64,000 bases of DNA from an uncultured Actinomycetota bacterium (GCA_963825505.1 CAWGTL010000008.1:48411-112410), one strand, 5' to 3'; shown: positions 43,579 through 52,913, counted from the first letter of the stretch. Translations and numbers: made by a program. The notes: generated from the letters alone by a model not told the origin.

Positions 43579-43582
43579 GCCC

Positions 43583-45043
43583 TCAGCGTCCGGGCAGGGG
43601 TTCGACCTCGACGACCTGGCGGGTGCCGAGCGGTGAGGTCCATTCGTGGGCGGTGACGGTGCGGGTGTCGTCAGTGAGCGTGCGGCAGTGCCAGAGGGCG
43701 GCGGTCTTGTAGCGGTGGCACCGGCGCGATCTGGGCGACAGGTTCGGAACCGAGGTGGGTCCGCGTGGGTGGGGGATGGTGTGGTCGAGGTCGCAGCGTG
43801 AGGTGGGGACGGCGCAACCGGGGAAGGTGCAGACGGGGTCGCGCGCGGCGACGAAGTCCGCGATCTCGACCGTGGGCGTGTACGCGTCCGCGTGGTGCCG
43901 CGGCTCCGGGTGCTTCTGCCGTGCTCGGCGGGTGACGTCGAGCAGAGTGCTTCTGGTCCAACCCTTCCCAGGTGCCTGTCCGATGCGAAGCAGCCGGGTG
44001 AGGTGGCCGCAGGTGTCGGTGAGCAGGACGCAGGTCGACGCACCGCGGTCCAGTGCCTGGCCGGCGACGACGCGGGCGACGGCGGCGGTGACCGGTACCG
44101 GTGTCCCGTTGCCGCGGACCTCACCGGTGCTGTGGCTCGCGGGGTCCTCGCTGGTCAGGGTGTCCAGCGTGATGACGACGCCGATCTCACGCTGCACCCG
44201 ACCTCCGGCCCTGCCGCCATCACCGCCCAGACCGTTGGAATCAGTGCCGTCGTCGCAGACGGCGTCGAAGAGCAGGTCGAGCTCGGCCATGCCGCGGGTC
44301 CGCCCGCCCAGCTCGTCACGGGTCAGACCGCGGCTGAAGGCGTCCAGGCCGGCGGCGACCGTCAGGACCAGCTCGGTCGGTCCGGTGACCGTCATCGTGG
44401 ACAGGGTCGGATTCTCCGGGTGCGTCCAGGTCTGGATCCCGGTCCGCTCCCGCACCTCGCGGCGGACGTGGTCCTCGACGTCGGTGCGGGCCTTCGCCAC
44501 CGCGGTCTTCACCCGGCGGGTGAACGCGGCCGGTGTCGGGCCGCCCCACGGCCCGACGCGATCGGTCCCGTCCAACGGCAGCGCCGGTAACCCGTCCAGC
44601 ACGGTCGCCTCGACCTTGCGCGCCTGCCGATCGGTCAGCCCGGCGGTCTCCTCGGCCAGCACCCGCGCCCGCCGGGCATCGACCCGACCCGCCGCCAACG
44701 CCCCCAGCGTCGCCGTCAGCACCGTGCACAACGCCCGAGCGACCACCACGTCGCGCTCGGCCTCGAACTGCGACGACCCGGTCGCCGCCGCGACCTCCGC
44801 CGCGGCCAGGACATCGAGGTCGTGCTCGGTGATCCGCCCGCACCCCAACGCGTCAGCCCGCGAGCCCTCCCCGATCCGCCACCCCTCCTGCGCGTGTACC
44901 AGCCGCGTGATCATCCACATCCGCCGCAGGTGCTCGGCCTGGTGGGTGAACCCGGCCAGGGAGTGCGCCCGCAGGCCCGCGACCAGCGCCGCACCGCGCC
45001 CGTCCGACCCGTGCTGCTCCGACCCTCGATCCCCCGACCTCAT
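43583..45043 (-). CDS. DUF222 / HNH endonuclease protein (REP13E12-type, often regarded as a selfish or mobile gene)
   Basis: 486 aa. The C-terminal HNH region is CTFPGCAVPTSRCDLDHTIPHPRGPTSVPNLSPRSRRCHRYKT. The N-terminal DUF222-like region includes LDVLAAAEVAAATG... It lies tail-to-tail with the DUF4255 gene with a 4-nt gap. Confidence 0.85.
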   Translation of the reverse strand: MRSGDRGSEQHGSDGRGAALVAGLRAHSLAGFTHQAEHLRRMWMITRLVHAQEGWRIGEGSRADALGCGRITEHDLDVLAAAEVAAATGSSQFEAERDVVVARALCTVLTATLGALAAGRVDARRARVLAEETAGLTDRQARKVEATVLDGLPALPLDGTDRVGPWGGPTPAAFTRRVKTAVAKARTDVEDHVRREVRERTGIQTWTHPENPTLSTMTVTGPTELVLTVAAGLDAFSRGLTRDELGGRTRGMAELDLLFDAVCDDGTDSNGLGGDGGRAGGRVQREIGVVITLDTLTSEDPASHSTGEVRGNGTPVPVTAAVARVVAGQALDRGASTCVLLTDTCGHLTRLLRIGQAPGKGWTRSTLLDVTRRARQKHPEPRHHADAYTPTVEIADFVAARDPVCTFPGCAVPTSRCDLDHTIPHPRGPTSVPNLSPRSRRCHRYKTAALWHCRTLTDDTRTVTAHEWTSPLGTRQVVEVEPLPGR

Positions 45044-45117
45044 GGGACAAGGCTAGACGCCGCCACTGACAATCGGTCGATGCCGTCTGAGGGCCAACAC
45101 CGCACTCCTGCAACGGA

Positions 45118-45531
45118 TCAGGTCGTGCGGAACCAGCGTCCGCTGATCTCGTCGACCACGATCCGCACCAGGTGCGGCTTCGGGCCGGGGTGCACGGGGT
45201 GGAGCGGCAGGAACAGCGCGTCGAGGCTCTCGTGCAGCCCGCTGACGGTGCGCGCCTCGCCCTTGACGACGACGCTCCACGCGCTTCCCTCGGTGGGGTC
45301 GACACCGTCGGCCTCCAGGGCCACCGGGTGGCCGTCCGCGCCCGCGTGCTTCGTGCCGGCGGCGGTGCGGAACACCAGGGAGCCGTGGTCGACGACGAAG
45401 GTGACCGGGAAGACGTCCGGTCTGCCGTCGACGACCACCGCCAGCCGTCCGAGCTGCGACTCCCGCAGCATCGCCCAGCACTGCGACGACGACAGGACGA
45501 GCGGGTGGTTCGAGGGCTGGGTCGTGGTCAT
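45118..45531 (-). CDS. pyridoxamine 5'-phosphate oxidase (PPOX)-fold family protein
   Basis: LSSSQCWAMLRESQLGRLAVVVDGRPDVFPVTFVVDHGSLVFRTAAGTK...SVVVKGEA is typical of a PPOX-like split beta-barrel. Confidence 0.75.
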   Translation of the reverse strand: MTTTQPSNHPLVLSSSQCWAMLRESQLGRLAVVVDGRPDVFPVTFVVDHGSLVFRTAAGTKHAGADGHPVALEADGVDPTEGSAWSVVVKGEARTVSGLHESLDALFLPLHPVHPGPKPHLVRIVVDEISGRWFRTT

Positions 45532-45623
45532 ACCCAGAGCCTCGCCCTCACGACGGGAGGGGGCCAGAGTCGAAGGACCCGGAGCACGGACCAGAACCGG
45601 TACGGCGCGGCAGAAGACCCAGC

Positions 45624-45653
45624 GGCCCCGGTCCTCCGCAGAGGACCGGGGCC
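45624..45653 (-). terminator. 13-bp perfect GC-rich hairpin (GGCCCCGGTCCTC-cgca-GAGGACCGGGGCC) 22 nt downstream of the DoxX stop
   Basis: The inverted repeat was read directly. There is no U-tract, as is common for actinobacterial intrinsic terminators. Confidence 0.5.
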
Positions 45654-45674
45654 ACCGAGTCGGGGCGATTGCCG

Positions 45675-51620: not shown

Positions 51621-52049
51621 ATGTCCGACGAGACGGGCTTCGAAGGCTGGAACGAGGACGCAGGCGACGCGATCGGCGGCATCGTCGACGGCGTGACGGC
51701 GCTGCTGGACGGCGACGCCGACGCGGCCGTCGACGGCTTCCTGGACGGCAGCGGTGCTGCCATCAACTTCCTCACCGGCGGTCTGGCCGGCGAGGCCGTG
51801 GAGGCGGTCGAGGACTGGACCGGCATCGACGTCCGCGAGTCGGTCGAGGACGCCACCCAGTACGTGGGCGAGGCGCTCGGGGGGTTCGCCTACGACGTGG
51901 TGCAGGGCGCCGGCGACGTGGTCGACGACGTCACCGACTTCGCCTCGGAGGCCTACGACACCGCCTCGGACTACGCGAGCGACGCCGTCGACGCCGTGGG
52001 CGACGCCGCCGGCGAGGCCTGGGACGCCGTCACCTCGATCTTCGACTGA
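51621..52049 (+). CDS. orphan acidic protein, paralogue 1 (142 aa)
   Basis: ATG preceded by GAAGGAG. Asp/Glu/Ala/Gly-rich with no TM segment and no recognised domain. It shares the block TGIDxRExxEDATQYVGEAxG and its exact length with the next gene. Confidence 0.65.
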   Translation: MSDETGFEGWNEDAGDAIGGIVDGVTALLDGDADAAVDGFLDGSGAAINFLTGGLAGEAVEAVEDWTGIDVRESVEDATQYVGEALGGFAYDVVQGAGDVVDDVTDFASEAYDTASDYASDAVDAVGDAAGEAWDAVTSIFD

Positions 52050-52166
52050 CCCGTCCGGGTCGCCGCCGGCGCCGCGAACCCGGCGCCACGTATCTGGGCG
52101 GCGGTCCGGCACCTCTCACCACCAGACCGGCCATCGGGGTCCGGCCACCAGCGAGGAGAAGCACGC

Positions 52167-52595
52167 ATGTCCGACGACGAGGGTTTCGGCTCGATCGGCG
52201 AGGAAGCCATCGACGCCCTGTACGACACCGGGTTCGCCACGGCGGCCCTGATCTCCGGCGACGTCGACGTCGCCGTGGACCGCTACCTCGACGCCAGCAG
52301 CTCGGCGCTCGACGCAGTCACCGACGGCGGCTTCAGCCACCTGGTGGACCGGTTCGAGGCCGACACCGGCATCGACACCCGCGAGGCGTTCGAGGACGCC
52401 ACCCAGTACGTGGGCGAGGCGATCGGCGATGCCGCGTGGGAGGCCACCGAGTACGTCGGCGAGGTCTACGACGACGTCAGCTCCGCCGCGGGCGAGGCCT
52501 ACGACGACGTCACGAGCGCGGCCGGCGAGGCCTACGACGACGTCAGCTCCGCCGCCGGCGAGGCCTACGAAACCGTCACGGGGTGGTTCGAGTGA
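52167..52595 (+). CDS. orphan acidic protein, paralogue 2 (142 aa) with a 3x internal AAGEAYDDV(S/T)S repeat
   Basis: ATG preceded by GAGGAG. Alignable with paralogue 1 over its full length (MSDxxGF..., TGIDTREAFEDATQYVGEAIG, C-terminal GEAYETVTGWFE versus GEAWDAVTSIFD). Confidence 0.65.
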   Translation: MSDDEGFGSIGEEAIDALYDTGFATAALISGDVDVAVDRYLDASSSALDAVTDGGFSHLVDRFEADTGIDTREAFEDATQYVGEAIGDAAWEATEYVGEVYDDVSSAAGEAYDDVTSAAGEAYDDVSSAAGEAYETVTGWFE

Positions 52596-52750
52596 GCGAC
52601 CCCGCTCCCGAGACCACCACGCAGGAGGACGGCGTCGTCGAGCGGGTCGTCGAGGACGTCAAGGAGACCGCCCGCGAGGCGACCACCTTCGTCGCCCGGC
52701 TGGGCGGCGCGCTCTCCGACGGGTTCAAGGACGGCCGCGAGCGGACCTGA
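52592..52750 (+). CDS. small acidic/charged protein (52 aa), translationally coupled to paralogue 2
   Basis: The GTG overlaps the upstream stop (GTGA). High GC3. No recognised family. Confidence 0.45.
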   Translation: MSDPAPETTTQEDGVVERVVEDVKETAREATTFVARLGGALSDGFKDGRERT

Positions 52751-52802
52751 CAGCGGTCCTGACAGCCGTCCACGCACCACGAGACCACCTGTGCGGGTGG
52801 GC

Positions 52803-52834
52803 CGCCCCTCCCCGGCGCGAGCCGGGGAGGGGCG
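52803..52834 (+). terminator. 13-bp GC hairpin (CGCCCCTCCCCGG-cgcgag-CCGGGGAGGGGCG) between the accessory genes and the sheath gene
   Basis: The inverted repeat was read directly. It lies 53 nt after the small-ORF stop and 80 nt before the sheath ATG. It could be a terminator/attenuator or a 5'-UTR structure. Confidence 0.45.
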
Positions 52835-52913
52835 CGCAGGACCCGCACGGACCACCTGGTCGCAGCAGCACACACCGCAGCACCCACCCGCACTCACGGA
52901 GAGAGGCATCCTC

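Follow-up and report, generated by a model that had tools for sequence, protein, structure and literature searches.

A DevRS/OsdKR-type sensor block among the leading genes of a Streptomyces-type contractile injection system from an uncultured actinobacterium: probably two neighbouring regulons

A stretch of 64,000 nucleotides from an uncultured Actinomycetota bacterium (GCA_963825505.1, CAWGTL010000008.1:48411-112410), called the window below, carries genes resembling those of the mycobacterial sensor system DevR/DevS (DosR/DosS). These genes lie between the gene for a Pvc16_N-domain protein, here called Pvc16L, and the sheath gene of a contractile injection system (CIS). The question raised by this locus is whether the sensor governs the CIS or stands beside it with a regulon of its own. 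An initial annotation had proposed that hypoxia, NO, CO or redox state controls the CIS through this sensor. We lean towards the second reading: an autonomous DevRS/OsdKR-type sensor with a compact local regulon probably moved into a spacer near the start of a Streptomyces-type CIS cluster, which kept a regulon of its own.

Since the window has about 73% GC, raw lists of open reading frames (ORFs) were noisy. Genes were called by codon position (GC content at third positions, GC3) and by Pfam scans, which reproduced the gene list, coordinates and gap sizes of the initial annotation (Table 1). An NCBIfam scan of the window proteins gave nothing beyond the Pfam and PDB matches. For comparison, a background set of 80 loci was taken from the at least 593 sheath loci of a sheath-alignment genome scan. 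The sheaths of this set were 55-67% identical, and its genomes were from Streptomyces, Micromonospora, Nocardia, Cellulomonas and many metagenome-assembled genomes (MAGs). Close relatives were obtained by exact-protein look-ups. Loci of both sets are cited by number (L001 and so on).

The domain order of the kinase was GAF-A, GAF-B, HisKA_3 (residues 347-409) and HATPase_c (residues 452-539) by Pfam, which matched GAF_2 in two stretches. GAF-A was 66% identical to that of DosT (PDB 2vzw, E 1e-49) and also matched that of DevS (PDB 2w3d, E 5e-45); the heme-pocket peptide quoted in the initial annotation aligned with these same domains. The ATP-binding domain matched the DevS/DosT structures 3zxo and 3zxq. 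In a HMMER alignment to DevS, both the proximal histidine of the heme (H149 in DevS) and the distal tyrosine (Y171), which follows it at 22 residues, were conserved. The regulator was 57% identical over 210 aa to full-length M. tuberculosis DevR (PDB 3c3w, E 1e-72). This match was about 30 orders of magnitude better than that to the next family, VraR (E 3e-43), and the acceptor-aspartate context VAVLD-x-RLPDG was conserved. By homology, the block is a genuine DevRS/DosRS-type module, equivalent to Streptomyces OsdKR. The homology of kinase and regulator and the gene map agreed with the earlier placement of such a module between a Pvc16-type gene and the sheath operon.

Window positions 43583-51509 would thus form a self-contained module sensing oxygen, NO, CO or redox state, with a small local regulon; it is called the DosRS block below. 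Signal sensing and phosphotransfer are predicted from the homology with DevS/DosT. The kinase would be active when its heme is deoxy-ferrous or NO- or CO-bound, and would then phosphorylate the regulator. The regulator is expected to bind GGGAC-N4-GTCCC at the divergent promoter between its own gene and the universal stress protein (USP) gene, which would give autoregulation and drive the USP-kinase-CoA-transferase operon. It would also bind at the promoter of the DoxX-like gene and, possibly weakly, at the PPOX gene. The start of the tandem USP gene was moved from 47748 to the ATG at 47703, where a GGAGG ribosome-binding site was found. The kinase stop and the CoA-transferase start overlapped by 4 nt, from which the CoA-transferase is predicted to be translationally coupled to the kinase gene.

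The M. tuberculosis DevS/DosT-DevR system shares the kinase architecture of GAF-A, GAF-B, HisKA_3 and HATPase with the window. Rv3134c-devR-devS likewise has a USP gene upstream of the kinase, and M. tuberculosis DevR has a palindromic GGGAC-N4-GTCCC box in its own promoter, as in the window. The regulator of the window is divergently transcribed, whereas that of M. tuberculosis lies inside a USP-regulator-kinase operon. Unlike the M. tuberculosis DosR regulon, the local regulon of the window consists of CoA-transferase, DoxX-like, flavodoxin and PPOX-fold genes, and just two or three boxes were visible in the 64 kb. The host is a non-mycobacterial actinobacterium that seems to be represented by metagenome assemblies only.

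OsdK/OsdR of S. coelicolor (SCO0203/SCO0204) is the DevRS orthologue in another non-mycobacterial actinomycete (PMC5069765). The OsdR consensus AGGGCCGATCGGCCCT has the same core and spacing as the window boxes (PMC5069765). OsdR targets include USPs and a pyridoxamine-phosphate-oxidase-fold protein, as in the window block, and the PNPOx gene SCO0214 is listed among them (PMC5069765). OsdR sits in the large SCO0167-0220 stress island with nitrate reductase, unlike the window system (PMC5069765). The boxes of the window were of the GGGAC/GTCCC type, nearer to the mycobacterial form than to the OsdR form.

DevR/OsdR sites are palindromic, and their core is GGG(A/C)C-N4-G(T/G)CCC (PMC5069765). 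The only perfect GGGAC-N4-GTCCC of the 64 kb was at 46351-46364, some 130 nt 5' of the DoxX-like gene; another copy, with a 3-nt spacer, precedes it at 46330. Perfect or near-perfect boxes were also found 5' of the DoxX-like gene in L081 (6592), L084 (3444), L091 (2294, one mismatch) and L092 (773). The best intergenic match with one mismatch lay in the divergent regulator/USP promoter region, and the same intergenic region had perfect or one-mismatch boxes in L081, L084, L088, L089, L090, L091 and L092. A degenerate box 5' of the PPOX gene, with three mismatches, was weak evidence. It resembled the better boxes found where the CoA-transferase and PPOX genes meet, GGGTCGAAGGTCCC in L081 and one at 7381 in L090.

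The upstream regions of the CIS genes were searched with the same pattern. No strict box (at most one mismatch) was found in 42219-42294, 51510-51620, 52050-52166, 52751-52913 or 57419-57465, which are the regions 5' of Pvc16L, ac1, ac2, sheath and second tube gene, respectively. DevR boxes were also not found at the equivalent CIS sites of the relatives examined (L081, L084 and L091). More degenerate matches were uninformative in DNA of 73% GC, because they were rarer than in shuffled sequence. The strict pattern with at most two mismatches gave 68 matches in the window and 123 in shuffled sequence; the relaxed pattern GGGMC-N4-GKCCC with at most one mismatch gave 27 and 52. The sole relaxed match at the CIS upstream regions (52799-52812) was rejected as a DevR site, as it is part of a hairpin stem and such matches are below chance. 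An inverted repeat, GGTCCGC-N5-GCGGACC, at 51582-51600 was also rejected as a regulator site: its half-sites are unlike the DevR box, and the stem-loops in the 5' untranslated regions of relatives at this place are of unrelated sequence.

The CIS genes carried a signature of a different kind. When the regions upstream of Pvc16L and of the acidic-protein genes were aligned across relatives, a conserved two-part motif, GTATC-N17/18-CTC(T), was found 45-75 nt 5' of the start codons. In the 64 kb, GTATC-N17/18-CTC was matched four times, where chance would give 1.06 matches; each of the four was on the plus strand and directly 5' of a CIS gene. The motif occurred at equivalent positions in 10 related loci (L001, L081-L087, L090 and L091); in 79 more distant CIS loci, Streptomyces ones included, it was largely absent, with scattered single matches only. 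The displaced Pvc16L gene kept the motif, and none of the DosRS-block genes carried it. The motif is likely a promoter or regulator site of a dedicated, clade-specific CIS regulon. The CIS would thus stay a separate regulon, in which a motif of its own is retained by every one of Pvc16L, ac1, ac2 (continuing into sm52 and the sheath) and the second tube gene. A scan with sigma-70 and intrinsic-terminator consensus sequences gave no promoter match and two terminator matches at chance level inside the flavodoxin gene; these consensus sequences are uninformative for the window organism.

Control without a consensus box is a further way in which the two systems might be connected. The DevR-like regulator would then act on the CIS in trans, via non-consensus sites or via a factor that reads the GTATC motif. 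Some OsdR targets have no recognisable consensus (PMC5069765), and in other CIS clusters of actinobacteria the cap gene often has a NarL-family regulator gene directly 5' of it. At the window locus there was no sequence evidence for such control, the regulators of the other clusters were only 28-37% identical to the window regulator, and DosRS blocks exist with no CIS nearby (L088 and L089). Putative regulators are frequent in Streptomyces CIS regions, where 'putative eCIS regulatory genes' were noted (PMC10020575), and the NarL/LuxR genes of other clusters are consistent with this. Indirect control of this kind was judged improbable. As a separate observation, genes like NarL/LuxR-family regulators, 28-34% identical to the window regulator, lay 0.5-4 kb upstream of a short Pvc16_N gene in L003, L004, L005, L009, L012, L027, L054, L055 and L061.

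The junction between the DosRS block and the CIS lies directly after the CoA-transferase gene. The sequence past its stop codon consists of a TGCCCC..GGGGCA hairpin, GTATC and CTCTT, and is homologous to the spacer between Pvc16L and the acidic-protein gene of relatives. A near-identical small hairpin was found 3' of the Pvc16L stop in L081, L083, L001 and L085. This homology indicates one breakpoint at about 51510, with the native promoter region of the acidic-protein and sheath genes kept. The Pvc16L stop would lie on one side of this breakpoint and the spacer hairpin precisely on the other.

From the USP gene through the sheath gene, all genes are on the plus strand, with intergenic gaps of 19, -4, 111, 117, -4 and 163 nt. 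This order makes transcriptional read-through conceivable: under hypoxia, NO or CO, the DevR-activated USP-kinase-CoA-transferase transcript would run past 51517-51530 into ac1-ac2-sm52, sheath and tube, and CIS output would rise. The co-directional genes, the 111-nt gap and a hairpin no better than shuffled sequence would permit it, and Streptomyces CIS act under stress (PMC10066040). Such a transcript would meet the conserved CIS motif retained immediately 3' of the junction and would also have to cross a hairpin of -59 kcal/mol before the sheath gene, while no DevR box stood 5' of any CIS gene in the genomes examined.

That hairpin, very stable and GC-rich, separates sm52 from the sheath gene; 3' of it come a C/A-rich leader and the ribosome-binding region GAGAGAGGC. 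Hairpins of different sequence occupied the same place in L081 (about 9877-9941, z -5.7), L083 (about 9856-9910, z -3.7) and L086 (about 9920-9981, z -2.8). As relatives have hairpins at this position, the element is native to the CIS operon and gives no information on whether the DosRS block is insulated from it. Attenuation within the operon is one conceivable role; another is in mRNA processing or stability, by which the ratio of sheath to accessory proteins would be set. The initial annotation had named a strong terminator function here together with an independent constitutive promoter as what would speak against gas control. The hairpin at 52789-52850 was native and had no T-run.

The CIS itself was of the Streptomyces type (CISSc-like), as judged by its sheath, tube and baseplate genes. 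The sheath matched the solved Streptomyces CIS sheaths 8bky (E 1e-194) and 8bl4 (E 7e-191) and was 55-60% identical to those of Streptomyces loci. Further Pfam matches in the cluster were tube, CIS_tube, VgrG-like spike, gp25, Baseplate_J and Tail_P2_I. The genes 3' of the first tube gene were, in order, a 121-aa gene, DUF6760, a low-complexity gene, the second tube, CIS_tube, the VgrG-like spike, PAAR, gp25, baseplate J and P2_I. The gene set of CISSc (sco4242-sco4260/63) shares with the window two tube homologues, DUF6760, the VgrG-like spike, PAAR, gp25, baseplate J and P2_I. Unlike CISSc, the window has a long Pvc16_N paralogue directly heading the operon, and no pair of cap and ATPase genes was seen. 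It also differs in the small ORF and the acidic proteins with AYD-x-V repeats encoded before the sheath gene, and in the GTATC-N17/18-CTC motif, which is largely confined to its CIS subclade. Control of the S. coelicolor CIS by bldA and the sco4263 regulator has been reported (PMC10020575), and nothing comparable was visible in the window.

The initial annotation had called Pvc16L the cap gene and its distance from the sheath gene unusual. The Pvc16_N domain was present: residues 3-209 matched the 'Pvc16 N-terminal domain' chain of PDB 9gts (E 5e-23). The domain is followed by a long P/Q/G/A-rich low-complexity extension; the protein is intact, with the conserved C-terminal alanine/glutamine helix. 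Orthologues of 348-512 aa and 46-82% identity, with the conserved helix DPMAxLRxALAQAAQAQAALAQAQA, were found in L091, L081, L090, L083, L085, L086, L001 and L087. Neither a canonical short Pvc16_N protein (about 190-235 aa) nor its AAA+ ATPase partner was found in the 64-kb window. In L086 this canonical pair coexists with a Pvc16L orthologue, which makes the 427-aa Pvc16L a paralogue, with a putative cap role, and not the canonical cap gene. The expectation that a cap gene lies inside the structural block did not hold for Streptomyces-type CIS. In most of the 80 background loci, the short Pvc16_N and ATPase genes were 0.2-7 kb upstream of the sheath gene with other genes between. In S. coelicolor, the ATPase gene sco4259 is six genes from the sheath gene sco4253, so that CISSc and the window both have a cap-family gene upstream of the sheath with non-structural genes between (PMC10020575, PMC10066040). 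Since such separation is usual in Streptomyces-type CIS, it is no anomaly in itself.

The position of the block relative to the CIS differed among relatives. In type A (the window; L084, sheath 98% identical; L091, kinase 75% and Pvc16L 82% identical), the order was Pvc16L(+), DoxX-like(-), flavodoxin-like(-), regulator(-), USP(+), kinase(+), CoA-transferase(+) and acidic gene(+), with HNH and PPOX genes between Pvc16L and the DoxX-like gene in the window lineage only. In type B (L081, sheath 83%; L090, Angustibacter speluncae, kinase 65%, Pvc16L 73%), it was PPOX(-), CoA-transferase(-), kinase(-), USP(-), regulator(+), further genes, Pvc16L(+), acidic gene, small ORF and sheath; the block was adjacent to Pvc16L on its upstream side, and the kinase operon pointed away from the CIS. 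In L083, L085, L086, L087 and L001 there was no adjacency: Pvc16L was directly upstream of the sheath or of the acidic gene, small ORF and sheath, with unrelated genes on its other side. A DosRS block without a CIS nearby was found in L088 (kinase 69%) and in L089, which is from the genome of L083 and has its block about 0.93 Mb from the CIS of that genome.

The window arrangement appeared to be derived, because relatives without the block in between (L081, L083, L085, L086, L087 and L001) had Pvc16L 0.1-2.5 kb upstream of the sheath gene on the same strand. The block adjoined the CIS in four species, the closest relatives of the window, in two arrangements. The genomes with adjacency had the highest Pvc16L identity to the window (L091 82%, L081 74%, L090 73%), and those without it at most 69%. 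The left flanks of L081 and L090 shared genes for a luciferase-like oxidoreductase and an amino-acid permease. The ABC-F gene of the window (11368-13110, minus strand) was 90% identical to that of L092 (9871-11514), which lies 3.9 kb beyond PPOX, the last DosRS-block gene there; in a tblastn search of window proteins against the flanks of relatives, it was the only shared gene found. The DosRS block thus appears to be part of a chromosomal neighbourhood that is conserved but, in the window, broken by sugar and rhamnose genes over about 29 kb. Because adjacency follows Pvc16L identity, the flanks of L081 and L090 are shared, and the ABC-F gene is shared with L092, a single ancestral juxtaposition in a conserved neighbourhood followed by local rearrangement fits best. 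A single inversion from type B to type A was rejected. Inverting the block together with Pvc16L would place Pvc16L on the minus strand and misplace the acidic gene ac' of L081, and at least two events are needed.

The proposed history is as follows. In the ancestor of a small Angustibacter-like group, a label taken from one named homologue, the module would already have been beside a Streptomyces-type CIS. In the window lineage, local inversion or transposition events would have put it in the spacer between Pvc16L and the acidic-protein/sheath operon. The order of these events is deduced from the arrangements above.

The same comparison bears on read-through from the block into the CIS. The co-directional order recurs in L091, and the block stays beside the CIS in four species despite rearrangements; both speak for read-through. 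In L081 and L090, however, the kinase operon is directed away from the CIS, and five loci of the same subclade (L001, L083, L085, L086 and L087) and 79 more distant ones have no such block within 10 kb. Read-through was considered unlikely. Still less likely was the full form of the claim, in which a DevS/DevR gas sensor is wired by read-through to a cytoplasmic-type CIS and O2 limitation or NO raises a cell-death-mediating CIS in the Angustibacter-like group.

Taken together, the gas or redox control of the CIS proposed initially was not borne out: DevR boxes were confined to promoters of the block itself in the window and in five related genomes, the CIS genes had their own motif, and the kinase operon was reversed in type B. 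Nor was the block generally kept beside the sheath gene across relatives, given the five subclade loci and 79 distant ones without it and the two DosRS blocks without a CIS. None of the 80 background loci had a homologue of the DevS-type kinase, USP, CoA-transferase, PPOX, DoxX or flavodoxin gene within 10 kb upstream of the sheath gene. Neither the DevRS/OsdKR module nor the Streptomyces-type CIS is a new kind of system, and the window shows a lineage-specific arrangement of them with no evidence of connection beyond proximity. The initial annotation was aware of no description of such a link, and no paper connecting DosR/OsdR with a CIS was found. Among the reported OsdR targets there is no CIS gene (no SCO424x, SCO425x or 'phage' entry; PMC5069765).

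Several points weigh against separate regulons. Between the CoA-transferase and ac1 genes a strong terminator is missing (z about 0), so that insulation of the two regulons from each other is not demonstrated. L091, a second species (kinase 75% identical), has the co-directional order too, and the survival of adjacency through two or more types of rearrangement could be due to selection for linkage. The promoter function of GTATC and the DNA binding of the regulator are predictions from sequence. In addition, the nearest relatives of the window are not among the 80 background loci; L090, L091 and L092 are truncated contigs, and L081 and L084 are error-prone long-read MAGs with frameshifts.

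Recent horizontal insertion was weighed at the other end of the block, where the DUF222/HNH-like gene is convergent with Pvc16L and 4 nt from its stop codon. The block would then be a foreign island carried by the DUF222/HNH element and dropped into the CIS by chance. The position of the HNH gene, its weak codon-position signal and its restriction to the window lineage (the window and L084) would suit this. The gene was not found in L091, which has the same arrangement, nor in L081 or L090. Because L091 has the window-type order without it, the HNH gene is a later addition and not the agent of rearrangement, which largely refutes this explanation. The block was also orthologous and collinear with the CIS-adjacent blocks of L081 and L090, the ABC-F neighbour was common to L092, and the GC content across 43-52 kb (0.71-0.77) was not atypical. 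Insertion of a foreign island was thus very improbable. The HNH gene is probably a selfish insertion of the window lineage, later than the rearrangement. It is presumably akin to the REP13E12-type actinobacterial genes known from mycobacteria, which share with it a DUF222-like N-terminal region, a C-terminal HNH and patchy, lineage-specific spread. Unlike in that comparison, repeat ends or evidence of mobility were not found at the HNH gene of the window.

Table 1. Genes, candidate binding sites and hairpins of the window, with positions counted from its first nucleotide
Feature	Position	Strand	Basis or remark
Sugar uptake and rhamnose catabolism cluster	30280-42218	+	GC3 call and Pfam
GTATC-N17-CTC 5' of Pvc16L	42226-42250	+	Also 5' of Pvc16L in L081, L083, L085, L091
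Pvc16L (Pvc16_N-domain protein, 427 aa)	42295-43578	+	Pfam PF14065, E 2e-18
DUF222/HNH-like gene	43583-45043	-	DUF222 E 2e-4, below Pfam cut-off; HNH motif visible in translation
PPOX-fold protein	45118-45531	-	Pfam Pyridox_ox_2, E 5e-27
Degenerate DevR-like box 5' of PPOX gene	45567-45580	.	GAGTCGAAGGACCC; three mismatches to GGGAC-N4-GTCCC; weak evidence
Strong GC-rich hairpin 3' of DoxX-like gene	45616-45661	-	RNA fold -55 kcal/mol, z -5.9
DoxX-like membrane protein	45675-46223	-	Weak Pfam DoxX match, E 3e-3, below cut-off
Tandem DevR/OsdR boxes 5' of DoxX-like gene	46330-46364	.	GGGACGAGGTCCC (3-nt spacer) and GGGACCAACGTCCC (perfect palindrome)
Flavodoxin-like protein	46384-46896	-	Pfam Flavodoxin_5, E 1e-16
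DevR-like REC+GerE (NarL-family) response regulator	46905-47564	-	Pfam; PDB 3c3w
DevR/OsdR box, divergent regulator/USP promoter region	47600-47613	.	AGGACCAAGGTCCC; one mismatch
Tandem USP	47703-48623	+	Pfam Usp, two stretches, E 3e-40; first called from 47748
GAF-GAF-HisKA_3-HATPase sensor kinase	48643-50277	+	Pfam; PDB DevS/DosT domains
CoA-transferase, acetyl-CoA hydrolase/transferase family	50274-51509	+	Pfam AcetylCoA_hyd_C, E 1e-46
Small hairpin directly past CoA-transferase stop	51517-51530	+	TGCCCCTCGGGGCA; z about 0, no better than shuffled; not a strong terminator
GTATC-N17-CTC(TTT) 5' of ac1	51548-51572	+	
Acidic protein ac1	51621-52049	+	Gene call; no Pfam or NCBIfam match
GTATC-N18-CTC 5' of ac2	52090-52115	+	
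Acidic protein ac2	52167-52595	+	Gene call
sm52, 52-aa ORF	52592-52750	+	Gene call
Very stable GC-rich hairpin between sm52 and sheath	52789-52850	+	-59.4 kcal/mol, z -6.8; no T-run after
CIS sheath	52914-54467	+	Pfam Phage_sheath_1, Phage_sheath_1C; PDB 8bky/8bl4
First tube gene	54477-54917	+	GC3 call and Pfam
GTATC-N17-CTC 5' of second tube gene	57433-57457	+	Same position in L081, L083, L084, L085, L087
Second tube gene	57466-57918		

The remaining genes of the block were also followed across relatives. PPOX orthologues of 65-69% identity adjoined the CoA-transferase or kinase gene in L081, L088, L090 and L092. DoxX-like orthologues of 59-79% identity adjoined the regulator gene in L081, L089, L091 and L092; the hairpin 3' of the DoxX-like gene in the window is probably its terminator. 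The flavodoxin-like gene was present in L091 and L084 too. The CoA-transferase had NCBIfam similarity to acetate CoA-transferases below the cut-off; it was 3' of the kinase gene in L081, L090, L091 and L092, and a fragment remained in L089. In L088 (12098-17882) the DosRS block, with a kinase 69% identical, adjoined genes for phosphoketolase, acetate kinase and phosphotransacetylase. These neighbours and the conserved CoA-transferase are hints that the local output of the module may be acetate or acyl-CoA metabolism of the fermentation type.

The proteins ac1 and ac2 belong to a very acidic family without Pfam or NCBIfam match. Its members have 120-180 aa and carry (A/S)xxAYDxV repeats at the C-terminus, which end in W(F/L)(D/E). 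Members were found in the window (51621-52049 and 52167-52595), L081 (7384-7890 on the minus strand, and 9247-9690), L083 (9128-9664), L086 (9380-9742) and L087 (9309-9785). One acidic gene always lay between Pvc16L and the sheath gene, and it was duplicated in the window lineage. ac1 was 80% identical in L084, and an ac1-like gene was directly 3' of the CoA-transferase gene in L091. In L081, L083 and L086, the gene flanked by Pvc16L and the small ORF shared 61-69% identity with ac2; by this identity and position ac2 is the orthologue of the single-copy gene preceding the sheath operon of relatives. Equivalents of sm52, of 53-65 aa, were upstream of the sheath gene in L081, L083, L084 and L086. 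Some acidic proteins (ac' of L081, and that of L087) had a hydrophobic N-terminal stretch. The acidic proteins could serve the CIS as cargo, as a chaperone or in its assembly.

The gene that separates DUF6760 from the second tube gene (window 55529-57418, with a GC content of up to 0.80 at 56-57 kb) was ambiguous. The first 120 or so residues of the long ORF were rich in Arg, Pro and Ser and looked like a wrong frame, and the coding signal was clear only at 56639-57418; relatives carry a low-complexity protein of 540-700 aa at this place. The ambiguity is either an assembly frameshift or an extremely biased protein. In L083 (14562-18726; also in L082), another NarL-type two-component system (DUF7134/HisKA_3 kinase and regulator) with an MMPL transporter was found inside the CIS cluster. 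It sat between the low-complexity gene and the second tube gene, GTATC was kept 5' of the tube gene, and the sheath was 83% identical. As read from L083, this CIS lineage tolerates insertions at promoter-bearing junctions. At the baseplate end, a P2_I-like gene was followed by or fused to double zinc-ribbon segments (window 63073-64000; L081 18363-21542; L084 20890-21554; L085 20912-21545). The next product in relatives had a PF25302 NADase_transloc domain, with F5_F8_type_C in addition in L085. This segment could be a toxin or an effector-translocation module.

Should the juxtaposition prove to be regulatory, this would be the first contractile injection system under the control of a gas or redox sensor, and it would offer a testable trigger for the poorly understood cytoplasmic CIS of actinobacteria. 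The Streptomyces CIS mediates stress-induced cell death (PMC10066040), and read-through, if true, would link dormancy signalling directly to programmed lysis. The ordinary reading is favoured, in which a neighbouring module and a CIS were shuffled together, each with its own cis-regulatory signature. As separation of a cap-family gene from the sheath gene is routine in Streptomyces-type CIS, it should not by itself be flagged as an anomaly. The positions of the DevR boxes define a compact local regulon of USP, kinase, CoA-transferase, DoxX-like and possibly PPOX genes in a non-mycobacterial lineage. The CIS regulon is marked by the GTATC-N17/18-CTC motif, through which the sigma factor or regulator dedicated to it might be traced.

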